A stretch of DNA of 64,000 bases from Ktedonobacteria bacterium (GCA_027459785.1 DAIDGU010000057.1:34150-98149), one strand, 5' to 3'; counted from the stretch's first letter, positions 2,058-53,085 are shown. The notes: generated by a model from the letters alone, not told the origin. A program made the numbers and translations.

Positions 2058-3128
<1,071 letters not shown>

Positions 3129-3205
3129 TCACTCAGGTTGTGTACGTCGTTGTACATGAGAACAGCGATGCTCTCGGTGGCACAACTCGTAGCGTTGCGC
3201 CGGGC

Positions 3206-25824: not shown

Positions 25825-27336
25825 ATGCGACGTGCGATCATATTAGTCTGTTTGGCGCTACTTGCCGCCGGCTGTGGTTCGTCCAGTGTTGCGGCACCAG
25901 GGGCGACAACGATCACGCCGAATCCCATGACAGGCGCGCAAGATTGGCTGCAATTCGGTGACGACGGCCAGCATTCCGGCGCAAATCCCAACGAGACACA
26001 ATTGAGCCTGAGCAATGTCAGTGGCTTGCATCGCCTGTGGGCCGTAAAGCTGCCGGCGAAGGCAGATTCCACTCCTGTGCTTATTGGCTCAATCAAGGAG
26101 CCGAATGGCAAGCAGGGTGCCGTGATCTACGTCACCACCACGAATGGATCGCTCGTCGCGCTGGATGCCGCGACCGGCGCGCAACTCTGGCAAAAGACGA
26201 CGCAGGGACAGAAGTTGACGAACTCTTCGCCTGCTATCGATCCTAACAAGCAGTACGTCTATAGCTACGGGTTGGATGGCAAGGTGCATAAGTATGCTGC
26301 GACGAACGGCAACGAGGAGACGGGGAATGGCTGGCCACTCACCACGACGTTGATGACGGATGTCGAAAAGGAATCATCGGCGTTGACCATCGCCAACGGG
26401 CGGATCTATGTGACGATGAGCGGCTACAATGGCGATTTCGGCCATTACATCGGCCATGTCGTCTCCATGCCGCTCAGCGGTGGCACACCTGCCGTCTGGA
26501 ATGCGCTGTGCAGCAACAAGCATGAATTGCTGGGCCGGACGCAAGGCCAGGAGAACTATTGTGGTGATCGACAAGCGGGCATTTGGTCGCGGGCCGGCAC
26601 GGTGGCCGATCCCGCCACAGGCAGCGTGTATGTCGTGACGGGCAACGGGCCATACACGGCGAACACCAGCGGCGGCGTGAGTTGGGGCGACAGCGTCATC
26701 GCGCTCAGCGCCGACCTCAGCCATGTCGTCGATTCGTATACGCCGACGAACCATACATTCTTGAATAAGACAGATGTCGATCTCGGCAGCACGTCGCCGG
26801 CACTGTTGCCGCGCATCCCGAACAGCAATACCCCGCTGCTGGCCGTGCAGGGCGGCAAAGACGGCATCTTGCGCTTGTTGAACCGGCAAAACCTCAGCGG
26901 GCAGGGCGGTCCCGGTCACGTGGGCGGCGAGGTCGCCACCACCGGCGTCCCTGGTCCCGGCGGCAAAGATTTGGTGTTTACCCAGCCGACGGTGTGGACC
27001 GATGCATCTGGCACGATCTGGGTCTTTGTCGCGGATAGCCTCGGCACCGCCGGCTATCAGGTGCAGACGGACGGTTCCGGCAAAACGACGCTCCACCAGG
27101 CATGGATCATCAACCAGGGTGGCAACTCAATGGTGATGGCGCATGGCGTGCTGATCTTGCCCACCAACGGCAAGTTGCTGGCGCTCGATCCCCAGTCCGG
27201 CAAGACCGTGTGGGATAGCTCCACCGCAGCAGCCGTCGGCACCATCGGCAGCATTCACTGGGAAAGTCCCATCGTCGTCAATGGCCATATCTATATGACC
27301 GACGAGAGCGGCAATATGTACGCCTACGGTCTATAG
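25825..27336 (+). CDS. PQQ-like beta-propeller repeat lipoprotein
   Basis: Lipobox LLAAGCGSS. Repeated GSLVALDAATGAQLWQ-type blades. GAGGAGG RBS. Confidence 0.75.
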   Translation: MRRAIILVCLALLAAGCGSSSVAAPGATTITPNPMTGAQDWLQFGDDGQHSGANPNETQLSLSNVSGLHRLWAVKLPAKADSTPVLIGSIKEPNGKQGAVIYVTTTNGSLVALDAATGAQLWQKTTQGQKLTNSSPAIDPNKQYVYSYGLDGKVHKYAATNGNEETGNGWPLTTTLMTDVEKESSALTIANGRIYVTMSGYNGDFGHYIGHVVSMPLSGGTPAVWNALCSNKHELLGRTQGQENYCGDRQAGIWSRAGTVADPATGSVYVVTGNGPYTANTSGGVSWGDSVIALSADLSHVVDSYTPTNHTFLNKTDVDLGSTSPALLPRIPNSNTPLLAVQGGKDGILRLLNRQNLSGQGGPGHVGGEVATTGVPGPGGKDLVFTQPTVWTDASGTIWVFVADSLGTAGYQVQTDGSGKTTLHQAWIINQGGNSMVMAHGVLILPTNGKLLALDPQSGKTVWDSSTAAAVGTIGSIHWESPIVVNGHIYMTDESGNMYAYGL

Positions 27337-32011: not shown

Positions 32012-33970
32012 TCACGATACCAACATGATCGGCGAGCCGATCAACGCGGCGGAAACCGTCATCAGCGTCGTGGGCGGCGCATAGGTGCCGTTCCAGGCGA
32101 TCTGCCACTCGCCGCCGGCGTAATCGGGCGGCAGGGTGAGGGTGAGGCGCACCCACTTGCCGTGATAGAGATCGTCGCCGTTCAACGAGGTTTGGATCGC
32201 GGGCATGCCGCTGACCGTGGTCATGCGCGCCCAGGTGGGATATGTGACACTGCCGCCAGCGGCGGGCGGGACGATGCGCAGCGCCACCGCGCCGGCCCCT
32301 AGCCCTGGATTGAAGAGGCCGAGCGCGATTTGGCGGCCCGCGTAAGAGGCGGGGATGTTCGCCAGCGGATACATTTGGGATGAACCACCTTGCAGCATCA
32401 CCGTCGCCGCGTTCCAGGGCGTGATGGTCGCGCCGCCCGTCGCGCAGTCATCGGCGGTCGTCGTCGCATTGCGACAGACCTTGACGGCGTAGCCATGTAC
32501 GCCGTAACCTGCGCTGGTATCGACCGTCAGCCGATAATAAGCGGGGGCGTTCGCGGGGGCGGCGGGGACATTAGAGCCGACGCGCACCCACTGCATGTAA
32601 TCAGGCGGCAATGCAGACTGGCAACCAACCCCATAGGCGATAGGCTGCTGGTAGCTGCTGCCCGCGCCGCTCTGCACGTTCCACGTGCCAGCCGATGGGC
32701 AGCCATGCGCGGCGAGATCATTGGGTGCGGCATCCAATGATGGCAGCGTGGTGATCTGGGTCGGCGGCAACGGCGCGTTCGGCGTGGTATCTGGCGGCGT
32801 GGCGGCGGGCCACAGCGCGGCCAGCGGCACATCGGCGTTGCGCTGATAGAGCAGCGGCACACTGAATAGCGTATAGGCGAGTTGCGGATAGAACGCCGGA
32901 TTATCTGTCATGCCGGTCGAGTAGATATTTTCCGTGGTAAAGAGCTGATCGTTACGGTTCGTGCCAGTATAAACGAAGCGCGGATTCCACACCCACACCG
33001 AATAGCCGCTGCCACCCGCCGGAATGGTGATGAGATAGCTCGCTCCCGTCGGCACTGGTCCCGTGCGCGTCGCCAGGCCGCCAAAACCGCTGGGAATCTG
33101 GTCGGGATTGCCCGGCGTCCCCGGACTACAATTCGGGCCGCTGGCATACTGGGGCGCGTTCGTGCCAATGCTCAGTTGTGAGGTGGTGTAGATGTTGGTG
33201 GCGGCATCAGCATGCAGGGTATCCGCGCCATCGCTCCAGCCCGTCTCGCACTGCACGCTATAGGGATCGCCACGCTCCTTCAACTCATAGGGGCTAGCCA
33301 GCGCCGCGACCTGTTGCCCGATGTTTTCTGGTTTATCACCGAAAGCTCCAGTGCTATCGCCGAGCGCGACCGGCGGCAGGATCTCCGCCGTGGCCGTCGC
33401 CAGCGTCGTCGCGGGCGCAGGATCGATGAGCGCCACCAGTGACACCGGTACATTGATGTGGATGGTCACGGTCAGCGCCGGCACCGGATTCACCTGCGAT
33501 GTGACTGAGATCGCGCTGGCGTCACCGAAGCCGTTCTGCGCGGCGACCTGAAGCGCCTGGCTCGTCGCGTCGCTGCCATCCGGCGCGGGCGTGGCCACCG
33601 TGGGGTATTGTGGGAGATAGGCGACGCCGGCCAGCGCGGCGGCTTCCGCCGCTCGTTCCGCCTGGGCGAACGCGATATAGACGCGCAACCCATCGATCGA
33701 TAACCCGACGAGCATCAGCAGCGTCACCACGCTCAGCGCGAAAAGGACGAGCGCCTGGCCCTTGGCAGCACGGGGAGGCCGAGGATACCAACAGCCACAC
33801 CCTACAAGGCTACGAAACGCACGAAAGGAAACCGGAGACACTAGCCACAACGGGTCCAAGCTTTCGCCGCGCCACGAACACAAGCACGCGCGCCAGCGCG
33901 CCCATACATCGAGCAAGCCGAGTTTTTTGCTTTTGAGATGAAAAGGCGGTGATGATGACATTTGGTTCAT
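32012..33970 (-). CDS. TadG-like pilus assembly/minor pilin protein, large (about 650 aa)
   Basis: KGQALVLFALSVVTLLMLVGLSIDGLRVYIAFAQAERAAEAAALAG is a TadG/Tad_N-type N-terminus. Its ATG overlaps the tadE-like stop (ATGA). The 5' part of track ORF 32012..34504 overlaps the upstream gene and is rejected. Confidence 0.65.
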   Translation of the reverse strand: MNQMSSSPPFHLKSKKLGLLDVWARWRACLCSWRGESLDPLWLVSPVSFRAFRSLVGCGCWYPRPPRAAKGQALVLFALSVVTLLMLVGLSIDGLRVYIAFAQAERAAEAAALAGVAYLPQYPTVATPAPDGSDATSQALQVAAQNGFGDASAISVTSQVNPVPALTVTIHINVPVSLVALIDPAPATTLATATAEILPPVALGDSTGAFGDKPENIGQQVAALASPYELKERGDPYSVQCETGWSDGADTLHADAATNIYTTSQLSIGTNAPQYASGPNCSPGTPGNPDQIPSGFGGLATRTGPVPTGASYLITIPAGGSGYSVWVWNPRFVYTGTNRNDQLFTTENIYSTGMTDNPAFYPQLAYTLFSVPLLYQRNADVPLAALWPAATPPDTTPNAPLPPTQITTLPSLDAAPNDLAAHGCPSAGTWNVQSGAGSSYQQPIAYGVGCQSALPPDYMQWVRVGSNVPAAPANAPAYYRLTVDTSAGYGVHGYAVKVCRNATTTADDCATGGATITPWNAATVMLQGGSSQMYPLANIPASYAGRQIALGLFNPGLGAGAVALRIVPPAAGGSVTYPTWARMTTVSGMPAIQTSLNGDDLYHGKWVRLTLTLPPDYAGGEWQIAWNGTYAPPTTLMTVSAALIGSPIMLVS

Positions 33971-34539
33971 CCTGGGGTGAGCGGTACAACGACATGATCG
34001 ACCACAGAGAGTGAGCCAGTGGCGATCAGTGGCGTTTGCCAGGTGTAGGTGTAGTCGATTTCGACGCCAAGCATGGCAGGCGGCGTAAAAGCAGGGGTGC
34101 GCTGCGCCGGCGACCAATTCATGGCCTGGGCGGGTGGGGCGCTCACCAGGCTCACACAGCCCGGATCGCCGGCATACACATCTGCATAGGCGCTGCCGCC
34201 CAGGCCACCAAGTGGCAATCCATCGCTCCCCGGCTGGTAGATGCTGATGCGCGTGATCGTGAGGCCGGCATATGGGCCGAGGCCGGCAGCAATCGCCCCC
34301 AGCGCATCGCAATCCGCCACCGCCGCATTCCCTGCCGCCGCCGCGCTGAGCGCGCCCTGGCGCGCGGCATATGTCACCGCGAGGTGCGCGTTCAGCAGCG
34401 CTCCCATGTCCACCACCCCGGCGAGCATCACGAAAAGGATGGTCACGAAGAGGACGAACTCGACCAAGCTCTGCCCGCGCCTTTTTCCACTGGGTTTTAT
34501 ACACAAGCGTTCCACGTGGAACATGGTGCCGTGAAACAT
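33967..34539 (-). CDS. TadE-like protein
   Basis: RRGQSLVEFVLFVTILFVMLAGVVDMG is the TadE N-terminal motif. Palindrome copy 6 lies in its first codons. Confidence 0.7.
   Translation of the reverse strand: MFHGTMFHVERLCIKPSGKRRGQSLVEFVLFVTILFVMLAGVVDMGALLNAHLAVTYAARQGALSAAAAGNAAVADCDALGAIAAGLGPYAGLTITRISIYQPGSDGLPLGGLGGSAYADVYAGDPGCVSLVSAPPAQAMNWSPAQRTPAFTPPAMLGVEIDYTYTWQTPLIATGSLSVVDHVVVPLTPG
34509..34522. repeat. palindrome copy 6 (GTTCCACGTGGAAC)
   Basis: Exact 14-mer. It is read as M-F-H-V-E-R at the 5' end of the tadE-like ORF. Confidence 0.95.
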
Positions 34540-34541
34540 CC

Positions 34542-35108
34542 TCAGCCTCCCTCCGGCGCGAGCGGCATTATCGCCGTCGCATTCAGCGTCAGCGTCGCGC
34601 CCGTCGCCCCGATGAACGAGGTCAGCCAGGTATACCGATACGTGATGCGCACGCCCAGGTAGACCGGCGCGGCGACCGTGCTGACACGGCTGGCGACGGG
34701 CCAGGACGGCGACGTGAGAGCGTTGCCCGCCCCATCATAGACATCCTCCGCGCCACCGGTTGGCCCAGCGCCCGTGGCATCGGATTGATAGATAATGATC
34801 TGCGTGATCTGCGCGACGAAAAGCGGCTGCACGATGCGCCGAATCAGCGCCTCCGTCTGCGCATCCGCATTGCCCAGCCGCGTCGCATCCAGCGCCGCCG
34901 TGCGCGCGCCCTGATGAGCGGCAGTGTCATAGAGCGCCGTCGCGCTATAGATCAGTGCTAATTCGATCAACCCGAAAAGCAGTGCCAGAAACAACGGCAG
35001 CACCAGCGCGAACTCGACGAGCGCCTGGCCGTGTCGGGCGGGGATACGTCCCACATGGCGCTGGGACGGCGGGGGCGAGGTGAAGTGCGGGGACGGCGGG
35101 CGCGGCAT
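34542..35108 (-). CDS. TadE-like protein (start uncertain; the ORF is open up to 35468)
   Basis: HGQALVEFALVLPLFLALLFGLIELAL is the TadE motif. The upstream 120 codons are encoded by REP and tandem-repeat DNA. Confidence 0.6.
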   Translation of the reverse strand: MPRPPSPHFTSPPPSQRHVGRIPARHGQALVEFALVLPLFLALLFGLIELALIYSATALYDTAAHQGARTAALDATRLGNADAQTEALIRRIVQPLFVAQITQIIIYQSDATGAGPTGGAEDVYDGAGNALTSPSWPVASRVSTVAAPVYLGVRITYRYTWLTSFIGATGATLTLNATAIMPLAPEGG

Positions 35109-35137
35109 CGGCGGGCGGTTGGCGGTGTGACGGGGAC

Positions 35138-35262
35138 GCGGGCGGTTGAAACCGCGCCGTTGGGGCCATCCGGCCACGAAACCTGCCTGCGCAGGTTCAC
35201 GCCAGTCCGCGAAGGCGGACTTCGTCGCCGCCAGGCGCTTAGGCGCGGTTTCAACCGCCCGC
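35138..35262. repeat. REPIN-like doublet: two REP units in inverted orientation
   Basis: GCGGGCGGTTGAAACCGCGCC...CACGAA-ACCTGC/CTGC/GCAGGT hairpin (35180..35197), then AGTCCGC/GAAG/GCGGACT (35204..35221) ...GGCGCGGTTTCAACCGCCCGC. Confidence 0.75.
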
Positions 35263-35324
35263 GTCCTCGTATCGGCAACCGCCCGCGTCCTCGTATCGGC
35301 AACCGCCCGCGTCCCCGTATCGGC
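35253..35324. repeat. 24-bp tandem repeat x3 (AACCGCCCGCGTCCTCGTATCGGC)
   Basis: Three consecutive units; the third has 1 mismatch. A degenerate CCGCCGCAACCTCCCG x2 follows. Confidence 0.85.
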
Positions 35325-35464
35325 AACCGCCCGCCGCAACCTCCCGCCGCCCGCCGCAACCTCCCGCGTCCCCCGCGCTCCGGCCATTGCCCGCATCCCC
35401 GGTACTCCCACTATTGCCCGCGTCTCCGGTGCTCCTTCCCGTACTACATATCTGCTTGTTATCC

Positions 35465-36394
35465 TCATAGCCGCATCCCCGGTGCGACCGAGTGGATGAT
35501 CTGGGGGATTGATGGCCCCAGTAGCACGATGAAAAGCGGCGGAAAAACGAGGATGACGAGGGGGAACATCATCTTGATCGGCGCTTCGCGGGCGAGGGTT
35601 TCGGCGCGCTGGCGGCGACGCACGCGCATATCAGCGGATTGTTCGTGCAGCACCTGTTCCAGCGGAGCGCCGAGCTGACGACTCTGGTTGATGGTGGCGA
35701 CGAGCGTGTGGATCTCATCCAGCCCCACGCGGTCGGCGAAGTGTTGCAGCGCGTCGCCCAGGTGGACGCCAGCGCGCAATTCCAGCAGCGTGCGCCCCAG
35801 TTCGGCGCGCATCACTGGCGGCGCATGCTCCGTCACGCGCGCCAAGGCGCGCTCCAACGCCATCACCCCTGTGCAAAGCGTCAGCATATCCAGCAGGTCA
35901 GGCAGGGCCGCACGAATGTCGCCCTGGCGTGTCTTGGCTTTGCCGTTCACCCACATCACCGGCAGCATATACGCCGCCGCCGCCGCGCCCACCCCACCCA
36001 ACACCACCTGCACCATACCGCCGCTGGCCACGAGCGCCAACGCGGCGAAACACAGACCAAAACCCACGCCCGCGAAAAAGCGCAACGCCATGAAGGTCGA
36101 GGCGTCTAAATTGCCGCCGAGGTCGGCCCGATTGATCACCCGCTGCATCTTATCCAGCGAGTTGCCGGGTGCCAACCGCCCGATACTTTTGCCCAGGTTA
36201 CTCAACATCGGGCGCACCAGACGTTCAAGCAAGGGACGACGCAATTCATCATCCACCATAACGATCCGCTGGCGCAAAAGGCGATCCAGCCGCTGCTGCA
36301 CGGCGTCGCCGCGCGCCCGCCGTCCCACGCCCACGACTAGCACGATCACGCTGATCCCCGCACAACACGCCGCTACTAGCGAATAGGCTATCAT
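35465..36394 (-). CDS. tadC: Flp pilus assembly protein TadC (T2SS F-family)
   Basis: ALPDLLDMLTLCTGVMALERAL...INQSRQLGAPLEQVL...AREAPIKMMFPLV, a typical TadC pattern. Confidence 0.8.
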   Translation of the reverse strand: MIAYSLVAACCAGISVIVLVVGVGRRARGDAVQQRLDRLLRQRIVMVDDELRRPLLERLVRPMLSNLGKSIGRLAPGNSLDKMQRVINRADLGGNLDASTFMALRFFAGVGFGLCFAALALVASGGMVQVVLGGVGAAAAAYMLPVMWVNGKAKTRQGDIRAALPDLLDMLTLCTGVMALERALARVTEHAPPVMRAELGRTLLELRAGVHLGDALQHFADRVGLDEIHTLVATINQSRQLGAPLEQVLHEQSADMRVRRRQRAETLAREAPIKMMFPLVILVFPPLFIVLLGPSIPQIIHSVAPGMRL

Positions 36395-36482
36395 AAACGA
36401 ATCCTTCCGTTCCCCGTGAAACAGGCGAGTGCCTCAAGAAACATCACACCTGCTATTTCCAATTCAGACCCTTCCCTGCACG

Positions 36483-37445
36483 CTACACGCGGATATCGAC
36501 GACTTTGCGGATGACGACGACGCCGAGCGCGATCATGATGCCCGCCGTCAGGAACATCGTCCAGCCGCACCAGGTCGTCGTCTGAAACACGCCCAGGATG
36601 TAATGGGGATTGAAGACGAGCAGCAAAAGCAAGATGGCGACGGGCATCAGCGCCACGACATAGCCGGAATAACGTTGCTGCGCCGTCAGCGACTTCACCT
36701 CACCTTCCAGGCGTACGCGCTCGCGGATCGTCTCGCTGATGCGTTCGAGCATCTGCACCAGATTGCCGCCGCTCTCAGTCTGGATGGCGATGGCTGTGAC
36801 GAGCAATTGCAGATCGACGCTGGGGACGCGATCCGTCAGGTTCGTCAGCGCCTCTTTGACGCCGGTGCCATAGGTGATCTGCTGCACCACCAATTGCAGT
36901 TCCTTCGAGATCGGCGGCTTGGTCTGGCGCGCGGCCAGGTCCAGCGCCTGAGCGATGGTGCTGCTGCCGGAGCGCAGGGCGCTGGCGATCAGTTGCACCG
37001 CGCCGGGCAGTTGCGCGTCGAAGTCGCGCGCCCGCTTCGCACGGCGGGCGGCAATCCACCATTGCGGCCCCCAAAACGTGCCGGCGACGAGCAGCATGAA
37101 GAGGAAGATGTTATGGAGGACGACGCTCAGAAGGAGGCCCAGGCCCAGCAAGATGGCGACCAGCAGGATGAATTCACCGGCGGTCAGCGGCACGCCCGCG
37201 CGCGAAAGCTGTTCGTCCAACCCCACACGCCCGGCGAAGCGATTGAGCGCGGCGACGAGCTGGCCGGCGTCCTGGCGCGGCAGGGCATCGCGCGCCAACC
37301 CCTGGCGCTGGATCTCGAGCTGGCGCAAGCGATCTGCCACGCGGTTATGCCGGCGCGTCCATTCACGGCTGAGGCCGAAAAGGATGGTGAAGACCGCCAG
37401 CGCGCTCAGCACGCTCACCAGCAGCGGCACCTGACCCGCGCTCAT
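36483..37445 (-). CDS. tadB: Flp pilus assembly protein TadB (T2SS F-family)
   Basis: QLPGAVQLIASALRSGSS...IQTESGGNLVQMLERISETIRER. ATGA overlap with the cpaF stop. Confidence 0.8.
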   Translation of the reverse strand: MSAGQVPLLVSVLSALAVFTILFGLSREWTRRHNRVADRLRQLEIQRQGLARDALPRQDAGQLVAALNRFAGRVGLDEQLSRAGVPLTAGEFILLVAILLGLGLLLSVVLHNIFLFMLLVAGTFWGPQWWIAARRAKRARDFDAQLPGAVQLIASALRSGSSTIAQALDLAARQTKPPISKELQLVVQQITYGTGVKEALTNLTDRVPSVDLQLLVTAIAIQTESGGNLVQMLERISETIRERVRLEGEVKSLTAQQRYSGYVVALMPVAILLLLLVFNPHYILGVFQTTTWCGWTMFLTAGIMIALGVVVIRKVVDIRV

Positions 37446-38842
37446 GGCCGCGCCTCACGGCGAAAGATCGTCGGCGGCACAGGATAACCACGCCGCTCCA
37501 TCTCGTCCAGCAGGCGCGGCACGGTCCCTTTGGCGCGCAATCGACCGTGTACGCGGCCCTGCTCATCCAGTCCGGCGCGCTCGAACTCGAAGATCTCGAC
37601 CACCTCCACACCGTCGCCGTTCGCCCCCGCGCGCAATTCGGCGATGGAAGCGATCTTGCGCGAGCCGTCCTCGAAATGGTTCAGATGCACGATCAGGTTG
37701 ATGGCGCTGAGGATTTGCGCGCGCACGGCGCGGTCCGGCAGATCGATGCCAGCTTGCAATACCAGCATCTCCAGCCGGTTCAGCACGTCCGGCGCGCTAT
37801 TCGCGTGCAGCGTCGTCATCGATCCCTCATGGCCCGTATTCATCGCTTGCAACATGTCCAGCGCCTCGCCGCCACGACACTCGCCGACGATAATACGGTC
37901 GGGCCGCATTCTGAGCGCGTTAGCTACGAGCTGGCGAATCGTCACCTGATGCTTGCCCTCAACACTGGGCGGGCGGCTTTCCATGCGCACCACGTGCGCC
38001 TGCTGCAACTGCAATTCCGCCGCATCCTCGATGGTGATGATGCGCTGCTCCTGGGGGATGAAGACCGACAGAACGTTGAGGATCGTCGTCTTACCGGTGT
38101 TGGTGCCGCCGGAGACGATGATGTTCATCCGCGCCTCCACGCAACGCTGCAAAAAGAGCATCATATCGCGCGAGATCGTGCCGTTGTCGATCAGATCTTG
38201 CGGCTGCAACGCCTTCGCTGCGAACTTCCGGATCGTCAGGATGGGACCGTCGAGCGCGATAGGGCGGATGACGATGTTGACGCGCGACCCATCTTTCAGG
38301 CGAGCATCCACCGTCGGCGTCGTCTCATCCACGCGCCGCCCGATCTGCGAGACGATGCGCTCGATGACGCGCATCAGGTGCGGTTCGTCGTGGAACCGGA
38401 TGTCGGTCTGCATCATCGCGCCGCGCCGCTGGTCAATCCACACGCGGTATGGTCCGTTGACCATGATTTCGGTCACGTTCTCGTCGGCCAACAAGGGTTC
38501 GATGGGACCATAGCCCAGGATGTCGGCCAGGCAACGCGCAATCAGCGCCAGGCGCTCGTTCTTGCTCAGGGGCATCTGCTGCTTCTGCGCCTCAATATCG
38601 ATGATGCGCTGCAAACGCTCTTCCACCTCGCGTCGCATCTGCACCGGTGGCAACTGATCGATCTGGGTCTTGCTCGTCTCCAGGTCCGCCACCAGCAACA
38701 ATTGGATCTTGCGCTGCAAGTCGTAATAGGCCTGTTCGCGCGCGGTGGGACCGGTGCGGCCAGTGCCGCGCAGATCGCCGCTGCCGCTGGGGCGCGGCGT
38801 CGTCGGGTGGGCGGGCATATCAGCATAGCGTCGGGGTGTCAT
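37442..38842 (-). CDS. cpaF: Tad secretion ATPase CpaF/TadA
   Basis: VSGGTNTGKTTILNVL (Walker A), IITIEDAAEL, GHEGSMTTLHANS. GGAGG RBS. Confidence 0.9.
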   Translation of the reverse strand: MTPRRYADMPAHPTTPRPSGSGDLRGTGRTGPTAREQAYYDLQRKIQLLLVADLETSKTQIDQLPPVQMRREVEERLQRIIDIEAQKQQMPLSKNERLALIARCLADILGYGPIEPLLADENVTEIMVNGPYRVWIDQRRGAMMQTDIRFHDEPHLMRVIERIVSQIGRRVDETTPTVDARLKDGSRVNIVIRPIALDGPILTIRKFAAKALQPQDLIDNGTISRDMMLFLQRCVEARMNIIVSGGTNTGKTTILNVLSVFIPQEQRIITIEDAAELQLQQAHVVRMESRPPSVEGKHQVTIRQLVANALRMRPDRIIVGECRGGEALDMLQAMNTGHEGSMTTLHANSAPDVLNRLEMLVLQAGIDLPDRAVRAQILSAINLIVHLNHFEDGSRKIASIAELRAGANGDGVEVVEIFEFERAGLDEQGRVHGRLRAKGTVPRLLDEMERRGYPVPPTIFRREARP

Positions 38843-38860
38843 TCAAGCATGCCTCCTACA

Positions 38861-40066
38861 TCACGCGCGCGGTTTTTTCGTCGCTTGCAAATCTTGATAC
38901 AGCCGCCGCGCCAGGTCGTGCATCGCACGGCTGATGGGCGCACGGCGCGCATAGGTGACGAAAGGGACGCCGCGATTGACGGCCCCGATGACGGTGCGCA
39001 CATCGTCGGGAAACTGCGCGGCGAAGCGCCGCCCCAGCGACTGTTCGACGCGCTTAGGGGCGATCTGATAGCCGCCATCCATACGATTGCCGATCAGCCA
39101 GCAACGGTCGCCAGCGATACCCCGCCGGCGCAAGCCTTCCAGCAAGCCCTTCACACGATTGATGGCAGTGATCTCCGGCGTCGTAACGATCAAGAGGCGG
39201 TCGGCGCTCTCCAGGATCGCTTCATTGGCGTCGGTGAAAGTGGCATCAGTATCTACCACCGTCACATCGCAATGCTCACGCACCTCAACCAGGATCGCAC
39301 GCATCGTCTCGCGCCGGAACTCGCGCGCCACCTCTGGATCATCCGGCGAACGCAAGAGGCGGATGCCTGAATCATGGCGCACAGCGACCGATTGCAACGT
39401 CTCGAAGTCCAGATCTTCAGGATCGCGCAACATGTCGAGGGAGTGGTTGATGTGATCAAGGTTCAGCAAGACGTGGTCATCACCGGCGGCGAGGTTGCCA
39501 TCTACCAGCAGCACCTCTTCGGCACACGCATGCAAGGCCACCGCCAGGTTCGCCGCGATGATGCTGCGCCCAACACCACCCTTCGCGCCACAGACAGCCA
39601 CCAGGTGTTGCCCGCGCGCGGATGTTCCACGTGGAACACTGGGATGCGCGCCCGAACCCCGGCTGGTCCCCGGCAACTGCACCACCCGGCGGATCGCGCG
39701 CAACACGTCGTCGGCGCGCAAGGGCTTCACCAGAAAACCACGCGCCCCCACGTCCAGCGCCTGCTGCATCAGATCCTTGCTATCTTCGACAGACATCAGG
39801 ATGATCTGCGCCGGCACCTCCATGCTGAGGACGTGCGCCGCTGCCAGCCCGTCCATGCCGGGCATGTAGATATCCATGAGGATGATATCCGGCTGGTGCC
39901 GCCGCGCCAGCGCGATGCCCTCCCTGGCATCCGTGGCGATGCCGACGACGCGCAGATCCGCCACGGTGCTGAGCCAGCGGCGCACCGCCTGGGCCGTTTC
40001 GATGAGGTCGTCGATGATGAGGATGCGGATCGGCTGGCCCGCTCCTTCAGGTGAGTGCTGTGCCAT
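38861..40066 (-). CDS. CpaE/TadZ-like ParA/MinD-family ATPase with a canonical N-terminal receiver domain
   Basis: Receiver: ILIIDDL...DIILMDIYMPGMDG...IILMSV...GFLVKP. ATPase: VAVCGAKGGVGRS (deviant Walker A). GGGAGGGG RBS. Confidence 0.8.
   Translation of the reverse strand: MAQHSPEGAGQPIRILIIDDLIETAQAVRRWLSTVADLRVVGIATDAREGIALARRHQPDIILMDIYMPGMDGLAAAHVLSMEVPAQIILMSVEDSKDLMQQALDVGARGFLVKPLRADDVLRAIRRVVQLPGTSRGSGAHPSVPRGTSARGQHLVAVCGAKGGVGRSIIAANLAVALHACAEEVLLVDGNLAAGDDHVLLNLDHINHSLDMLRDPEDLDFETLQSVAVRHDSGIRLLRSPDDPEVAREFRRETMRAILVEVREHCDVTVVDTDATFTDANEAILESADRLLIVTTPEITAINRVKGLLEGLRRRGIAGDRCWLIGNRMDGGYQIAPKRVEQSLGRRFAAQFPDDVRTVIGAVNRGVPFVTYARRAPISRAMHDLARRLYQDLQATKKPRA
39623..39638. repeat. 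palindrome copy 7 (TGTTCCACGTGGAACA)
   Basis: Exact 16-mer inside the cpaE-like CDS. It is read S-V-P-R-G-T-S in the linker between the receiver and ATPase domains. Confidence 0.95.
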
Positions 40067-40249
40067 CCTTGGCCCCTCCCGCCTGTGCAAGCGCAAGAGG
40101 GATGCCAGCCCAAGCATAAGTCCGATAGTCCTTTATCTACCACATGAATTCCGCTCACATCTCACGTATAATAGATGATGTCCAGAGATATGTTGTCTCT
40201 GGCTGTGCATCGTCCTCTTGACATGATCGGAGGAGAAAGGATCTGGACC

Positions 40250-40501
40250 ATGCCCTTGTATCTCGACAAGCACCATCACATCGACGGCCTGACCACCGAT
40301 GGGGTGAAGCAAGCGCATGAAGCTGACCTCGCGATCCAGGAACAGTATGGTGTCACGTATTTGCAGTATTGGTTCAACGAAGAGACTGGCACGGTCTTTT
40401 GTTTGGTAGAGGCACCTAGCAAAGAAGCCGCCGCCACCGTTCACCGTCTCGCTCACGGGTTGGAAGCCGATGAGATCGTCGAAGTGCAGCCAGGAAGCTG
40501 A
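40250..40501 (+). CDS. DUF4242 family protein
   Basis: MPLYLDKHH...VKQAHEADLAIQEQYGVTYLQYWFNEETGTVFCLVEAPSKEAAATVHRLAHG. GGAGGAG RBS. Confidence 0.7.
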   Translation: MPLYLDKHHHIDGLTTDGVKQAHEADLAIQEQYGVTYLQYWFNEETGTVFCLVEAPSKEAAATVHRLAHGLEADEIVEVQPGS

Positions 40502-40679
40502 GCAGATCTGCCACGATAAGCGGCTGGTTCCTTTATAGCGGATCTGGCCGCTTATTGATGATTGGTAACGAATGATCCCTTATCGCACTAGGAAGTGAGG
40601 GCGAGCCGACTTTCAAAGCCGTATGAGGGTTTCTTGGGCTGGACGCAACAGGCGATTAAGCCACAGACTTTATGACCGG

Positions 40680-41879
40680 CTACTGACTACTCAGCACTGG
40701 CTTAAAAAGCTTTTTGTTAGCGGCAGCAACAAAGCTAAAGAATGCTAATAGTGACACTATCAGAGCGATTGTCCAATTATTGCCAAGAAATTGTAGAGCA
40801 AACCCCACGAGGAAAAGACCAGCAGAGTAAGCAAGGAAATCTCCTGACCGCGTAATGCTGGCAACTCTTCCTTGAATATGATGGGGTATTACGCCTGAAA
40901 TATTGCCACAAATAATATAAAAGGCTGGCAGTATGGCGAACAAGAGCGCAGTCACCACCGTTAATAGCGTAATATTGTATGCAAACAAATACAAGGAGAA
41001 CGTTACTGCACAGAGTATATTGGTGATGACGAGCATTGTATAGCGGTCGTATTGGTGCATTACTTTACCGAAGAATGCGGAGCCGAGGATGCCAGCGACG
41101 GCACTAATCGCCAAAACGATACCAATAGTAGTCGCTGAAGCGTGTAAGTCACGCGCGAATACAATCACCAGCAGTGAGAGGGCGGAAGTGGCCAATGCTC
41201 TGGCCCATGAAAGAGCAATGAAAACCCTATACATACGATTATGCCAGAACCATGCACCAGCCTCTTTAAGACCTTTTCGTATGCTCGTTTGCTTTAGGGC
41301 ATCTGGAGCTGATAAGGGAGAATTTATGAGTACTAAGGCTATGACGTTCAAGAAATACGACAGAGAGTCTGTCGCAAAGGAGAAGACAGCTCCAACTGTT
41401 TGATACAAAAAACCGCCGAATGAGGGTCCTACGAGCATTGCGAAGTGCTCAATCATACTATCCTGAGCAACTGCTTGAGGTAATTGCTCATTCGCTACAA
41501 GAAATCTACGGGATGAGAACCTACCAATATTTGCAAATACGAAACACCCGCCCTCAATGCCCATAAGAATAAATAGCTCGACAACTGTAAGCCGATGGAG
41601 GAATAGGCCAATGGCGAGCATTGCAAAGCCACTCCCCGCATTCCCAGCGAGCATTATGTTTCGTCTATTCCATTTATCGAGAATGTAGCCTGCGGGTATA
41701 GCTAAGAGCACATAGGTCACTCCTCGCATTGCAACAACCGAACCGGCAATTGCTGATGAGCCGGTCAGTGATAGGATAACGAGCGGCATAGCAATGCCCG
41801 AGATTTCTGTACCCATCCATGAGAGGCCTTGTCCGGCCCACATTAGCATGTAGTTACGCTGTTTCCAGAGTGGTTGCAT
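40680..41879 (-). CDS. MFS transporter (AT-rich, likely foreign)
   Basis: ~12 hydrophobic segments. The start is taken at MQPLWKQRNYMLMWAGQ. A hand count of 40741..40800 gives 22/60 G+C. Confidence 0.8.
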   Translation of the reverse strand: MQPLWKQRNYMLMWAGQGLSWMGTEISGIAMPLVILSLTGSSAIAGSVVAMRGVTYVLLAIPAGYILDKWNRRNIMLAGNAGSGFAMLAIGLFLHRLTVVELFILMGIEGGCFVFANIGRFSSRRFLVANEQLPQAVAQDSMIEHFAMLVGPSFGGFLYQTVGAVFSFATDSLSYFLNVIALVLINSPLSAPDALKQTSIRKGLKEAGAWFWHNRMYRVFIALSWARALATSALSLLVIVFARDLHASATTIGIVLAISAVAGILGSAFFGKVMHQYDRYTMLVITNILCAVTFSLYLFAYNITLLTVVTALLFAILPAFYIICGNISGVIPHHIQGRVASITRSGDFLAYSAGLFLVGFALQFLGNNWTIALIVSLLAFFSFVAAANKKLFKPVLSSQ

Positions 41880-42216
41880 AGAGTGATAATAACACACAAA
41901 TGACTGCTGTTGTATGGCCCCCATATTGCAACCGCCATTGCAGCGCATTCGATACAGTCAGATAACCAATCGTCGGTGGGTTATGAAGCGCGCTCGGCTA
42001 GTGCGATTCGCCCGGCATCATCTAAGGGAAGGTTGCGTTATATAGATCGGGAATAGCCGTCGTCGTGAGAACGGTGGCGAAGGAACGTGCCTCGACTTTC
42101 AATGTTGCGATAGTTAAAATAGGAAGCATGGCTCACCTCTTTGCCTCAGCGACATTCAATGTCTCCATGCTATGCCATAACTCACCACTCTGTCAAACTA
42201 TTCTGCTTTCATCTCA

Positions 42217-45640: not shown

Positions 45641-46333
45641 GCCGGCTGGCGGGTAAACCCGCGCCTTCGATCACCAAGCCTCCCTACGGAGGCTGGAGGT
45701 CGGCGGGGACGATCACAGAGATGAGGATGAATCTGAGGGGGAGTTTGGCGATGGCGGTTCGGTTACGTCGTCTCGTTCCATGATTTTCCAGTGGGCGCAG
45801 GTGCCGAGCGTGTGGTGATGGGCTTCCTGATTGCGGATGTAGTCTTGCACATTGGGCAAACGATGTTCGCCGACGCTGAACGCACCATAGCCGCCCTGCC
45901 ATTTGAAGAGATCGACGCCGGGGCGGGCGACGATGGCGTGGGCGGAGGAGCCTTTGATCTCGCCGATCAGTTTGGCGAGCGGAACGGTCGCGGGCAGCCG
46001 AACCAGCAGGTGCATATGATCCTCCACACCGCCTAACCCCAGCGGGTGCGCCCCGAACTCCTCGCATTTCGCCAATATCAACCGATACACATCGCCTCGA
46101 ATGTCTTTCGTCAACAATGGCAACCGATCCCAGGTCGCCCACACATAATGCACGAAGACATGCACGTTTGCTCCCCGCCTCGCCGCTGCCCTCCCGCGCT
46201 CTTATCCTCAACGAGGAAACACTTTCATCGCTTCAACTATACAATATACAACATTCGCGCCCTGATCGCCTCTCTCGCCCTCCAGCCTCCGCAGGGAGGC
46301 TTCGTGATCGAAAGCGTGGGTTTACCCGCCGGC
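45641..46333 (-). mobile_element. RAYT unit: IS200-like Y1 transposase flanked by inverted REP hairpins
   Basis: The 52-nt core at 45648..45699 matches the reverse complement of 46279..46330 at 48/52 positions. Each contains an AGCCTCC/N4/GGAGGCT hairpin. Confidence 0.8.
45713..46165 (-). CDS. REP-associated tyrosine transposase (IS200/IS605 TnpA-like, Y1 HUH)
   Basis: MHVFVHYVWATWDRLPLL..., HUH motif VEDHMHLLV, and a C-terminal Tyr context VQDYIRNQ. Confidence 0.85.
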   Translation of the reverse strand: MHVFVHYVWATWDRLPLLTKDIRGDVYRLILAKCEEFGAHPLGLGGVEDHMHLLVRLPATVPLAKLIGEIKGSSAHAIVARPGVDLFKWQGGYGAFSVGEHRLPNVQDYIRNQEAHHHTLGTCAHWKIMERDDVTEPPSPNSPSDSSSSL

Positions 46334-48486: not shown

Positions 48487-48813
48487 CCACAAAGTTATCC
48501 ACACGTTTGCGGGGGGGGACTTCCTGGCCGGCGTCTTCGCGCGTGGGACATGGCACATTGCAGCACGCTTTAGCCACCCAGCGGGATATCCGCCGCGATG
48601 GCGACCTCGCGGAATTGGCCGGCGCGCAACCCGCCGGGTAAAAGCTGCTTGCCGACGGCGTGCAGCCGCGCCCGCCGCGCTGCCAGGTCCAGCGCGGGAT
48701 CGGTCACGCCGGGATCGGGAACCACCCACGGCGCGACAGCCAGCAGTTCACCCGTCATCTTTTGCCCCGTTACGGTGTGGATAAAGCCGGAGTTACCCAC
48801 AAAGTTATCCACA
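48487..48813. promoter_or_regulatory. three perfect DnaA boxes, including a 17-bp exact direct repeat
   Basis: TTATCCACA at 48495..48503 and 48805..48813; TGTGGATAA at 48776..48784. CCACAAAGTTATCCACA is repeated exactly at 48487 and 48797. Confidence 0.6.
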
Positions 48814-49757
48814 TCGCGGGGGCTGGTCGCGCTCTTATGTGTGATGCTAGATTGACCGTCGAACGTCACATCGAAGAAGTTGCCCGTCTGCATGGCACAG
48901 ACGTTCGCCTGGATATGCGGATAGTCGTTTTGGACGCTGCCCAGCACGGCGTTAAGCCATTCCTGCGGCTGCCAGTCGCACGTCTGGGAGGGCGCGGGCC
49001 AGAGTTGGTCGTTGGCGTCGGGCTGCACGACGACCTGCGCGCCGTGCGTGTCCAAATGGCGCAGGTACGCCGGCGTGAAGGCATCCAGGCTGATGGCGAC
49101 GCCGATGCGTCCGGCGGGCGTCGTGATGACGCGCACATCCTCCAACCGCCCGGCGGTGATATCAAGCGTGTCGCGTTCACTTGGCGTGGGGAAAACTTTG
49201 TTGATACGGTGGATAACTCCCGCTGGCGTCGCCACCAGGGCAGTGTTATACACCGTGGGGCCGGCGGGCAGATAGATCACATTCCCACCGGATGGTTCCC
49301 GGCGGAGCGGGTGCGTGACGCGGGCGCGCGTCACCAGGGGGGCAGCGGTGCCGGCGACGATGGTGGCATGGTAACGGGCCGCCAGGCGCGGCAGGGCGGT
49401 CGCCAGCGGGCGATAGAGCGCGTCGGTACGCGCCAGCAGCAGGGCGCGCGGCAGCGTGATCCCTGGCCAACGCCGGCGCAACGCCAGGATCTCCGGCAAG
49501 TAAGCCGCACCCAGCGCCGCCAGGGCGCGTTGCACCGTCGGTTGCCGCCGCGCCGGCGCGGCCCGCAAGCCCAGCAGCACACCTGGCAGCCCCAGCAGTT
49601 CGCCCAGCACGATCAGGTTTGGGCGATCAGAGACGAGGTGCGGCGCGGCCAGCCCGACGATGCGCGTGATCTCCGCCTGGGCGCTGGCATCATCGCGCCA
49701 CGCCGCCACGTTCAGGCGATTGCCGACGGCCACCGCGCGTACCACCTGTTCGCCCAT
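48570..49757 (-). CDS. carbon-nitrogen hydrolase (nitrilase-superfamily)-like protein
   Basis: LIVLGELLG (Glu), RINKVFP (Lys), GRIGVAISLDAF (Ser where the catalytic Cys is expected). GGATGGAGGGGG RBS before the ATG at 49757. Confidence 0.55.
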   Translation of the reverse strand: MGEQVVRAVAVGNRLNVAAWRDDASAQAEITRIVGLAAPHLVSDRPNLIVLGELLGLPGVLLGLRAAPARRQPTVQRALAALGAAYLPEILALRRRWPGITLPRALLLARTDALYRPLATALPRLAARYHATIVAGTAAPLVTRARVTHPLRREPSGGNVIYLPAGPTVYNTALVATPAGVIHRINKVFPTPSERDTLDITAGRLEDVRVITTPAGRIGVAISLDAFTPAYLRHLDTHGAQVVVQPDANDQLWPAPSQTCDWQPQEWLNAVLGSVQNDYPHIQANVCAMQTGNFFDVTFDGQSSITHKSATSPRDVDNFVGNSGFIHTVTGQKMTGELLAVAPWVVPDPGVTDPALDLAARRARLHAVGKQLLPGGLRAGQFREVAIAADIPLGG

Positions 49758-49885: not shown

Positions 49886-50599
49886 ATGATCACCTTCGAG
49901 GATGTCACGCGGCTGTTTCTGCACGCCGCCGAAACCACCGGCATCACCACCCACCCCGATAGCTGGCTGAATGTCGAGACGCTGGAACGCGAGTTCGAGA
50001 GCATCTGCCATCTGGGGCCGTGCGAGGAAGCCGAAGACAAGGCGACCTGTGGCGTCTCCTTCAGTTGGAGTCCGTTGGATACCGCCCTCTCGCTGGATGG
50101 GCCGCAAGGCGTGTGCGATTTCTTCCACGATCCCAACGACACGTGTCCGCACCTGCACACGGAAGATGTGCCGCCGCTCGCACTGGATCTCGCCTACACC
50201 GTCGCGCTGAATAACATCCCGCTGGATCGGTTGGATCTGCAACCATTAGTGCGCATCCTGAAATATCGCGCGTCGGAAAACTCCAGCCGTGCCATCGAGA
50301 CGCGCCCCAGCATCGGCGTGATCTATGGCGAAAACGGTCCTGAAGCCGAAAGCGTGACCTTACAGCAACACGTCGAGCTGCCCCTGTGGAATCCCGAATT
50401 GCTGGGTGCCTTCCGCGATACCATCGAGCGCCAGCGCGGAGCCAGCCACCACGGGCGCAAACATTTTCGCTGGCAGGACGACGACGACGAGACCGGCCAG
50501 GAAGACTGGCTGCCGCCATTGATGGAAGCGGTCGTGGCCGACATCGAACACGTCCTGACCGCGCTGGATGACCTCTCGCTCACCCCCTTCACGCGCTAG
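49886..50599 (+). CDS. hypothetical protein (237 aa, acidic, several Cys/His)
   Basis: ATG-initiated ORF with GC3-rich codon usage. No family recognised. Confidence 0.5.
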   Translation: MITFEDVTRLFLHAAETTGITTHPDSWLNVETLEREFESICHLGPCEEAEDKATCGVSFSWSPLDTALSLDGPQGVCDFFHDPNDTCPHLHTEDVPPLALDLAYTVALNNIPLDRLDLQPLVRILKYRASENSSRAIETRPSIGVIYGENGPEAESVTLQQHVELPLWNPELLGAFRDTIERQRGASHHGRKHFRWQDDDDETGQEDWLPPLMEAVVADIEHVLTALDDLSLTPFTR

Positions 50600-50838: not shown

Positions 50839-51084
50839 ATGCAGCCTAAAGGGTCTTGTCCACGCTGTGGGATCGGCATGTTAGCACCAGAAGTGGTTGA
50901 AGAGACTTTAATTGTAGGACCAAATGCCGTACAAGTCACGGTCGAAGCCGACGTCTGCTCGTACTGTGGCGAACGTTGGTTTGCTCCCCCGGCAATTGCC
51001 ACCATCGATGTTGCTATCCAGCATTTGCGTACTGGTGATCTCTCGCACCTAAACCACATCGGCGAGGTGTATAAAGCTTCCTAA
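50839..51084 (+). CDS. YgiT-type zinc-finger protein (MqsA-like antitoxin N-domain type)
   Basis: CPRCG...N31...CSYCGERWF. TGGAGGA RBS. Lies in a lower-GC patch. Confidence 0.65.
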   Translation: MQPKGSCPRCGIGMLAPEVVEETLIVGPNAVQVTVEADVCSYCGERWFAPPAIATIDVAIQHLRTGDLSHLNHIGEVYKAS

Positions 51085-51353: not shown

Positions 51354-51609
51354 TGTGGATAGGGTGTGGTTGGCATGCGGGCAGGATGTGGAGGCGCGTG
51401 GATATCTTCTGCGTCAGCGATCAGTTATGCCCCACTCATCCACAGTCGTCCCCAACGGGTCCACACCTTCTCCGCATATCCCCAATGGCTTCCACATGTG
51501 GATAACTGATTGTGGATAGCGTGGATGATCGCTCTCCCCAGGGCATCCACAATCCGCCAACCACTTCTCTACCCTTTGTCCACGCACTTTTCCACAATCA
51601 TGTGGATAA
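51354..51609. promoter_or_regulatory. dense DnaA-box cluster (candidate oriC or DnaA-titration locus)
   Basis: Perfect TGTGGATAA at 51497 and 51601. One-mismatch boxes at 51354, 51436, 51511 and 51588, plus several two-mismatch boxes. AT-rich tract at 51227..51275. Confidence 0.6.
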
Positions 51610-51646: not shown

Positions 51647-52474
51647 TTAATGGAAGCTGAGGACGAGCGAGCGCACGACCAGCCCCCAGCCATCCACCAG
51701 CACGAAGAGCAGCAGCTTGAAAGGCAAGGAGACGATGGTGGGCGAGAGCATCATCATGCCGACCGACATCAGCGATGTGGAAACGACCAGATCGATGACG
51801 ATGAAGGGCAGCAGGATCAAGAAGCCCATCTGAAACGCCGTCTTGATCTCGCTGAGGATGAAGGCGGGAATCAGCACATACGTTGGCACGTCGGCTTGAG
51901 TGCGCGGTGCTGGCATCTTCGCCAGGTAAACGAAGAGCGAGAGGTCTTTTTCGCGTGTCTGACGGAACATGAAGGCGCGTAGCGGCACCTGGGCGCGGTC
52001 CAGCGCGACTTGCTGCGAGATCTTGCCCTGCGAGTAGGGGGTGAGCGCGGTAGCATTGATCTGTTGCCAGGTGGGGGCCATGACGAACACCGTCAGGAAA
52101 AGCGCCAGCCCGACGATCACCTGATTCGGCGGCACCTGCTGCGCGCCCAGGCCGGAGCGCAGAAACGACAGCACGATCAGGATGCGCGTGAAGCCGGTCA
52201 GCATCATGATCAGCGAGGGTGCCAGGCTGAGGATGGTGATGAGCGCCAGCACCTCCAGCGGCACGCTGGTATCATTGGCTGAGGTGGTTGGCGGGGTGGT
52301 AACGTTCCCCGCCGGCGCGGTGGTCGTCGTGCCGGTCGGCCCGTTCACCGTGATCTGCAAGCCGGGTGTGCCGCTACCCGTCGTCGGCGCGGCGTCCAGC
52401 GAGCAGCCACCGAAAATCAAGGCCAGGGCAAAAATCCCCAGGCACAGCCAGCGTTGTCGTCTGATCCGTCGCAT
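51647..52474 (-). CDS. fliP: FliP/SctR-family type III export-gate protein, solitary
   Basis: [94 protein letters not shown]. Lipobox-like FGGC. GGAGGG RBS. Confidence 0.85.
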
Positions 52475-52782
52475 CGTGTCGTCCCTCCGCCATCATTGTC
52501 CCTTTCAGGTGTACTCCATCGCTGGCGATTTCTAGAGGGGCAAAGGTCACGAAGCGGGTGGGATGAAGGGCGGGATTCTTTTCAGAGGGACTATCGCACA
52601 AGTGGACTTGTGTACTCTCAAGAGATATCCTGGCTGCGCCGATGAACATGGGTACAACGGCGAAGGCAGCCGATGGCACGAGCGCCACACGTGTCGGTTG
52701 GCCAGCCCGCGCCGCGCGCACGATGCGCCAGACATCTAAACGCGCGGCGTGCCGCGCGGCCTTGAAAGGGGCGACGTGCAGT

Positions 52783-53085
52783 ATGCCCATGCCTTTACCG
52801 GTGCCTGATCCATCTGATGAGGATTGCGTTTGGGATAGTGCCTTTGACTTCGACGACGAGGCGGATGATCCGGTCGATCTGCTCCTGCCCGTCGATACGC
52901 CCCTGGCCGACCAACTGGCGCTGGACGACCTCTTCGACCAGGGTTTTACGTGGGAGGAGGGTTTGCGATTGTTGATTCTGCGCGAACACCTTTATGACGT
53001 GCCGGAAATGCGTGAGCGTGTCACCGGTGATCCCCATCTGCACTTCCTGCGCTGGCTGTATGATCGGGGGGTGTATTCGAGCTAG
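52783..53085 (+). CDS. hypothetical small acidic protein (100 aa)
   Basis: MPMPLPVPDPSDEDCVWDSAFDFDDEADD... GAAAGGGG upstream. The 5' part of the track ORF (from 52642) looks non-coding. Confidence 0.45.
   Translation: MPMPLPVPDPSDEDCVWDSAFDFDDEADDPVDLLLPVDTPLADQLALDDLFDQGFTWEEGLRLLILREHLYDVPEMRERVTGDPHLHFLRWLYDRGVYSS

Follow-up and report, generated by a model that had tools for sequence, protein, structure and literature searches.

The FliP subunits of the flagellar FliPQR-FlhBA export gate from Salmonella (6F2D/6R69), Vibrio mimicus (6S3L) and Vibrio (8Z5S) are the point of reference for the protein described here, which is encoded in a 64-kb stretch of Ktedonobacterial DNA (the whole of this stretch is termed the window throughout) and whose core is 50–57% identical to theirs. 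The Salmonella and Vibrio proteins resemble the window FliP in their helical layout, in the methionine loop and in having, as is predicted for the window FliP, an N-terminal signal peptide before the first transmembrane helix. Salmonella FliP is known to carry a cleavable signal peptide (PMC5542437), and one has been predicted for the FliP of C. jejuni (PMC12403147). The N-terminal extension of Vibrio FliP is of equal or greater length, with its residue 68 aligning from residue 53 of the window FliP. The window version differs from those of Salmonella and Vibrio in the following respects: 1) it has a lipobox cysteine in place of a signal-peptidase-I site, a difference in predicted cleavage; 2) a Thr/Pro-rich tether is present; and 3) its gene is monocistronic, with no fliQ-fliR after it.

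The nearest annotated Chloroflexota-related record is the fliP of the Thermomicrobium roseum megaplasmid (NC_011961), the product of which is 61% identical in the core, has a similarly long N-terminus and likewise carries a cysteine closing the hydrophobic stretch (SSAC). The T. roseum gene belongs to a classical fliP-fliQ-fliR-flhB-flhA-flhF operon, divergent from flbD-motAB-fliLMNO, whereas the fliP of the window stands alone. The SctR proteins of injectisomes (SpaP/Spa24/YscR) are homologues that adopt the same fold and likewise serve in an export gate, but they share only 31–35% identity with the window FliP, which scores under the SctR equivalog cut-off.

A flagellar gene layout without such operons is familiar from Campylobacterota, in which more than 50 flagellar genes are distributed over about 30 loci (PMC9321776); those of H. 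pylori are similarly scattered (PMC2864241). In both Helicobacter pylori and Campylobacter jejuni, fliP and other flagellar genes lie among housekeeping genes, as in the window, and the flagellum works (PMC9321776, PMC2864241, PMC12403147). Regulation in the Campylobacterota involves sigma-54 and sigma-28, whereas the element upstream of the window fliP fits neither consensus, and the Campylobacterota literature that we examined reports no link of fliP to a replication origin. Since the phylum and the envelope type are unrelated to those of Campylobacterota, the scattering of flagellar genes would have arisen independently.

The FliP protein and its N-terminus

The coding sequence and the signals associated with it can be resolved into the following features (coordinates are those of the window):

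51647..52474, minus strand: coding sequence of fliP, specifying the 275-aa pore protein of the flagellar type III export gate (ORF and family match)
51665..52243, minus strand: conserved FliP core, aa 78–270, including the G239-M-M-M-L methionine loop (Pfam envelope)
52265..52402, minus strand: low-complexity Thr/Pro/Gly/Ser linker, aa 25–70, with a conserved PGLQITVNG motif (pLDDT)
52403..52474, minus strand: predicted signal peptide, aa 1–23, ending in the lipobox I-F-G-G-C24 (sequence; predicted helix 3–21)
52483..52488, minus strand: Shine-Dalgarno GGAGGG, 8 nt before the fliP ATG (direct sequence reading)
52508..52549, minus strand: upstream element TGACCTTTGCCCCT, followed by 22 nt and then TACACC; candidate promoter/activator site (conservation in relatives)

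The start codon of fliP is ATG (ORF listing), and the Shine-Dalgarno motif ahead of it bears out the good ribosome-binding site claimed in the preliminary description of this DNA; AGGAGG-type sites also precede the fliP start codons of the relatives. In the codon-position GC profile, the GC3 of fliP (0.84) is in line with that of the other genes in the window. Profile searches recover the match over the whole conserved core that had been noted earlier: the Pfam FliP profile (PF00813) detects the ORF with E = 3.7e-80 and 268.8 bits (cut-off 26.9), aligned over positions 1–191 of 191, and against the NCBIfam fliP equivalog TIGR01103 (cut-off 217.45) it reaches 275.6 bits over positions 1–197 of 197. 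The injectisome equivalog TIGR01102 (SctR/yscR) gives 180.8 bits, under its cut-off of 208.6. Flagellar FliP chains in the PDB match the ORF at E-values of 1e-64 to 1e-68, and SpaP at 4e-33. An AlphaFold model based on a 30-sequence alignment (mean pLDDT 68, i.e. of moderate confidence) has helices at residues 3–21, 70–108, 117–148, 154–184, 198–237 and 245–274. Foldseek searches with this model retrieve FliP in FliPQR complexes at the top (E = 7e-15, 50–57% identity), with the injectisome SpaP/Spa24 ranking lower (~1e-7 to 3e-8). The ORF at 51647–52474 is a full-length FliP of the flagellar, not the injectisome, subtype.

Both the sequence and the AlphaFold model indicate that residues 1–23 comprise a charged n-region and, after it, a hydrophobic helix, and the predicted cleavage is lipoprotein-type. 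F-G-G-C24 matches the lipobox pattern [LVI..][ASTVIG][GAS]C and is situated at the end of the h-region, behind the basic n-region. The linker is predicted to be disordered, with residues 23–68 at pLDDT < 50 in the AlphaFold model, and both its length and its sequence differ between relatives. The lipobox-like FGGC and the T/P/G-rich spacer to which the preliminary description had drawn attention are thus both real. A motif of the form L/F-[GSA]-[GS]-C-S is present in 27/27 full-length Ktedonobacterial FliPs, and the lipobox cysteine also occurs in T. roseum FliP and in several FliPs from MAGs, at least one of which is labelled Chloroflexi. It is lacking at all 48 loci sampled from other phyla, among them Firmicutes, Actinomycetota, Alphaproteobacteria and Nitrospirota, where the FliPs have A-x-A-type signal peptides or no signal peptide. 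Among the sampled lineages, the lipobox-type signal peptide of FliP is found only in Chloroflexota. A canonical lipobox, LLAAGC, is also seen in another protein of the window (25825–27336).

Given the lipobox that closes the predicted signal peptide, processing by signal peptidase II and lipid anchoring of the mature FliP at Cys24 are predicted, and we consider this outcome likely judging from the sequence pattern. The preliminary description had called the N-terminus as a whole unusual. This holds for the lipobox cysteine, which is lineage-specific, but not for the long extension; a FliP signal peptide was already known and the extension of Vibrio FliP is longer still, so that the lipobox is the novel part of the N-terminus. 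An interpretation of the extension as a FliO-FliP fusion was rejected, because it consists of a single hydrophobic helix and a disordered linker with no FliO-like domain. If they are truly lipidated, the Chloroflexota FliPs would bear on the insertion of the gate in this envelope type.

Genomic context in the window and in related genomes

About 60 likely genes were called in the window and all of them were scanned against Pfam, while 21 annotated flagellar proteins of the T. roseum megaplasmid served as tblastn queries against the same DNA. Across the 64 kb, these searches recovered no flagellar or T3SS genes besides fliP, and in particular no FliQ, FliR, FlhB or FlhA, which agrees with the isolation of fliP as originally described. 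One flank of fliP is occupied by a CN-hydrolase, a conserved 237-aa protein of no matched family and a small ORF with an MqsA-like zinc finger, and the other by a divergent acidic 147-aa protein, dCTP deaminase, MsrA, ArgS and CoaX. The features in the immediate surroundings of fliP are as below (L numbers denote loci of relatives):

49886–50599, plus strand: 237-aa protein without a Pfam/NCBIfam match; 67–83% identical in L002 and L006–L009
51234..51275, no strand assigned: AT-rich stretch, 80% A+T in 40 nt, candidate DNA-unwinding element (AT-richest 40-mer near the cluster)
51354..51609, no strand assigned: DnaA-box cluster with 6 boxes that resemble TTATCCACA (no more than 1 mismatch), including 2 perfect ones (box scan)
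52642–53085, plus strand: acidic 147-aa protein without a Pfam/NCBIfam match; 44–51% identical in L002, L010, L011 and L087

The 237-aa and 147-aa proteins adjoin fliP and the DnaA boxes in relatives too. A role for either as a hidden FliO or FliQ was rejected, as they have neither transmembrane character nor a Pfam/NCBIfam match. The zinc-finger ORF (50839–51084, plus strand; 81 aa, YgiT/MqsA-type, antitoxin-like) adjoins the putative origin, and a partner toxin gene for it was not recognised. An Rfam scan of the 50.5–53.3 kb segment gave no match. Elsewhere in the window, a Tad/Flp-type pilus cluster occupies 32012–40117 on the minus strand, and comprises genes for a large TadG-like protein (which matches no Pfam family), TadE, two T2SSF proteins (TadB/C), a CpaF-type T2SSE ATPase and a receiver-ParA protein (CpaE-like). 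It is followed by a low-GC stretch (40100–42000, ~0.56 versus 0.62 overall) with an MFS transporter gene of GC3 0.46, which was probably acquired, and, a few kb from this stretch, by an IS200-type Y1 transposase gene (45713–46165).

For comparison, FliP loci were taken from genomes, metagenomes and assemblies and searched with T. roseum FliQ, FliR, FlhB and FlhA; the count of gate genes was restricted to loci in which 600 bp or more of sequence was available downstream of fliP. None of the 21 loci of the Ktedonobacterial clade has fliQ, fliR, flhB or flhA in the fetched flanks. Among 131 loci from other lineages, fliQ starts within ~250 bp of the fliP end in 107, and is located elsewhere in the locus in 19 more. 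A synteny comparison of the kind proposed in the preliminary description hence finds fliP to be solitary in all 21 related loci. The wider neighbours of fliP in these relatives vary, and include a phosphate ABC transporter, UvrC with a PPIase, IF3, glycosyltransferases and exonuclease VII. Given that the wider neighbourhood differs among relatives, fliP is in each of them a single gene with a placement of its own.

Flagellar genes of the motor, switch, chaperone, hook-junction and flagellin types were seen in Ktedonobacterial loci, with no gate gene directly seen there: 1) In L001, FlgK, FlgL and flagellin are encoded 7–9 kb from fliP. 2) In L010, an FlbD-MotA-FliN-MotB-FliL cluster along with FliS and FliT is situated at 4–8 kb from fliP. 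3) L002 and L176 are segments of a single 69.8-kb contig, with ~47 kb between fliP and the same motor/chaperone cluster. MotA has ~34 orthologues at 61–71% identity, of which at least two are labelled Ktedonobacterales, paralleling the ~28 orthologues of FliP. A scan of metagenomes yielded only short Ktedonobacterial contigs, with no additional fliP context.

The motor clusters have further features of their own. The fliN gene is inserted between motA and motB, and a gene for a 473–709-aa protein without a Pfam match follows fliL. In three Ktedonobacterial relatives a sortase gene lies directly beside fliS-fliT (L010 19108–19794, L174 7837–8538, L175 7898–8587), and in each of these the sortase gene shares a small cluster with flbD-motA-fliN-motB-fliL. 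In L092, a gene for a sigma-54-dependent activator (Sigma54_activat and HTH_8; 2095–3132) is found 2 kb upstream of fliP, and no -24/-12 promoter is evident before fliP in this locus.

The nearest relatives of the window FliP are 69–85% identical, all come from Ktedonobacterales MAGs and all share the long N-terminus. The best matches in the species-representative genome set are L007 (85%), L008 (84%) and L006 (82%), the last of which (JACDGC010000116) derives from the name-giving genome of the GTDB family JACDGC01; a block of fliP, DnaA boxes, the 237-aa ORF and the CN-hydrolase is common to the window and these relatives. FliP similarity and local synteny thereby point to an organism in a flagellated Ktedonobacterales lineage around JACDGC01. 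The class Ktedonobacteria is known from non-motile mycelial isolates, its cultured members being described as non-motile, and to our knowledge the flagellated lineage has no cultured member and its flagella have not been observed. A 2026 genomic survey of the class found flagellar and chemotaxis genes to be enriched in JACDGC01 (PMC13374853). Across 12 JACDGC01 genomes, the prevalence was 1.0 for FliQ, FliR, FlhB, FlgE, FlgK and flagellin, and 0.92 for FlhA, FliP, FliI and FliS (PMC13374853, supplementary file 7), and the same flagellar genes had a prevalence of 0 in the two other families of the class, represented by 81 Ktedonobacteraceae and 18 JADMIN01 genomes (PMC13374853). On the strength of the relatives and of this family-level table, the partners fliQ, fliR, flhA and flhB are expected in the genome from which the window derives. 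The Tad cluster of the window is, for its part, consistent with the type IV pilus genes published for JACDGC01.

Explanations for the solitary fliP

We interpret the gene as a functional flagellar FliP in a Ktedonobacterial lineage with a dispersed flagellar regulon, comparable to that of Campylobacterota, and assign this interpretation a probability of roughly 0.87. Flagellar genes are scattered around the chromosome in this branch, and the isolation of fliP is therefore a matter of gene layout rather than a sign of a relic or a new secretion system. Of the interpretations offered in the preliminary description, the one in which the remaining gate genes are scattered elsewhere is the one favored by the 21 clade loci devoid of gate genes, the flagellar genes of the relatives and the JACDGC01 survey. 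Homology suggests the following scenario for the protein: the N-terminal signal peptide would insert FliP into the cytoplasmic membrane; five FliP subunits would combine with FliR and FliQ to form the helical FliPQR core of the export gate; this core would then be joined by FlhB and FlhA; and the completed gate would export rod, hook and filament subunits. After lipidation of Cys24, the disordered Thr/Pro-rich tether would be located external to the membrane, preceding the first transmembrane helix. On the genomic side, an ancestral fliPQR-flhBA operon has probably been broken up in this lineage into small dispersed flagellar loci, with fliP turning monocistronic and becoming fixed beside the DnaA-box cluster of the probable chromosomal origin.

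Interpreted in this manner, the locus has several implications. A lone fliP among housekeeping genes mimics a relic or a new secretion device, yet is normal for the clade, and a false lead is thereby removed. The locus also strengthens, at the sequence level, the case for a motile, flagellated lineage among the Ktedonobacteria, and would represent a second, independent case of a fully broken-up fliPQR-flhBA operon, outside Campylobacterota.

Recruitment of FliP to a different export function, which the preliminary description had also raised, would make it a protein acting outside the flagellum, whether as a pore on its own or in association with non-flagellar partners. The conserved solitary arrangement and the lineage-specific N-terminus might be read in these terms, and a candidate partner exists in the Tad pilus cluster (at 32–40 kb in the window, 12–20 kb off), by analogy to the Tad and T3SS-like killing system of Myxococcus. 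However, the profile scores place the protein among the flagellar FliP equivalogs and not in a divergent subfamily, and it co-occurs with a full flagellar gene set at the family level (PMC13374853). Its neighbours in relatives are flagellar motor and chaperone genes and not Tad genes, the latter being syntenic with fliP in no relative, and in solved structures FliP is found only as a part of FliPQR. We accordingly regard such an exaptation as improbable.

Less probable still is the view that the flagellum was lost in this lineage and that fliP is a decaying or functionless leftover, the relic of the preliminary description. It could draw on the non-motility of cultured Ktedonobacteria and on the lack of any other flagellar gene in the 64 kb, as well as on the prevalence of 0 for flagellar genes in Ktedonobacteraceae (PMC13374853). 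It is largely refuted by the state of the gene itself. The window ORF is intact and has a good ribosome-binding site, and the reading frame is intact in 9/9 of the relatives compared, the pseudogenisation in relatives that had been named as the contrary outcome being absent from all nine. Substitution rates were estimated by the Nei-Gojobori method against these nine relatives, with six comparisons unsaturated and dS saturated in three. In the six unsaturated comparisons, with dS values of 0.55–1.1 that bring synonymous sites near saturation, the core has a dN/dS of 0.06–0.13. The linker has values of 0.08–0.72, mostly above those of the core, as expected for a low-complexity tether. A 30-sequence FliP alignment contains 67 invariant columns, including the FTR and PPNQ motifs and the G-M-M-M-L loop, with F95, T96, R97, P115, N117, Q118, G239, M240, M242 and P245 among the invariant residues. 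The fliP gene is intact and under purifying selection, and is not decaying. Moreover, a promoter-like upstream element is conserved, and relatives with an equally solitary fliP carry other flagellar genes.

That fliP is foreign to the chromosome, owing to an error of assembly or binning or to a recent insertion by horizontal transfer, might be suspected from the metagenomic source of the contig, the label 'Proteobacteria' on the contig of the relative L007, and the IS200-type transposase and low-GC island 6–11 kb away, but is refuted by conserved synteny, the block of fliP, DnaA boxes, 237-aa ORF and CN-hydrolase recurring in independent assemblies from different studies, with a fliP GC3 like that of the neighbouring genes and coherent FliPs (69–85% identity) across the clade.

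The upstream element and the DnaA boxes

The conserved upstream element lies ~35–75 nt ahead of the fliP start codon, and has the consensus TGACyTTTGCCCCT (14 nt)-N22-TAnnny, the last part being a -10-like hexamer. It occurs once per locus, before fliP, in all relatives, and the composite pattern has a single match in the 64-kb window. The same architecture is present ahead of flbD-motA in L010 (17909, minus strand) and L174 (9634, plus strand), and is not clear in L176. On the basis of this distribution the element may tentatively be viewed as a candidate shared flagellar regulatory site. Its identification as a sigma-28 or sigma-54 promoter was rejected, since its spacing and sequence are unlike either consensus, and a scan with the sigma-70 consensus found no promoter near fliP.

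On the other side of the gene, the DnaA-box cluster noticed beside fliP in the preliminary description is confirmed: its six boxes span 256 bp of a convergent intergenic region, beginning 38 bp past the fliP stop codon. The window as a whole has 20 DnaA boxes with at most one mismatch, against 5.6 +/- 2.2 expected by chance. The GC skew turns from negative to positive around 40–52 kb (as far as can be judged from the 64 kb of skew visible), and the genes are mostly on the minus strand from 29 to 50 kb and mostly on the plus strand from 52.6 to 63 kb. Neither dnaA nor dnaN is present in the window. The segment 51234–51617 is probably the chromosomal oriC, its origin function being predicted from the boxes, the AT-rich stretch and the switch in GC skew and gene orientation.

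The association of the boxes with fliP extends to the relatives: the first DnaA box follows the fliP stop codon by 5–40 bp in 8 of 12 related contexts and by 136 bp to ~3 kb in the other 4, and the densest DnaA-box cluster in each relative's locus is 0–3 kb from the stop. In every context fliP is transcribed towards the boxes, and no terminator-like site was found between fliP and the boxes in the window. We consider the adjacency of fliP and the DnaA boxes to be a conserved synteny of putative function only; it would be usable for locating origins in Ktedonobacterial MAGs. That the pairing is functional instead of a frozen accident, and that the mature FliP is in addition a polytopic gate protein confined to Chloroflexota and unusual in its lipid anchor, is a combination that we regard as unlikely. 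Were the pairing functional, fliP transcription might read into the origin, or bound DnaA might block fliP transcription, and origin activity or replication state could become coupled to the supply of the first-assembling gate subunit.

A second DnaA-box cluster, with 3 perfect boxes and 2 with one mismatch, is found at 48495–49216, and could form a bipartite origin together with the first, the two halves flanking the 237-aa ORF. Three of its boxes fall in a 38-bp interval of the CN-hydrolase coding sequence (48776–48813), and similarly spaced box triplets are present 1.3–3.1 kb from fliP in L002, L006, L007 and L008.
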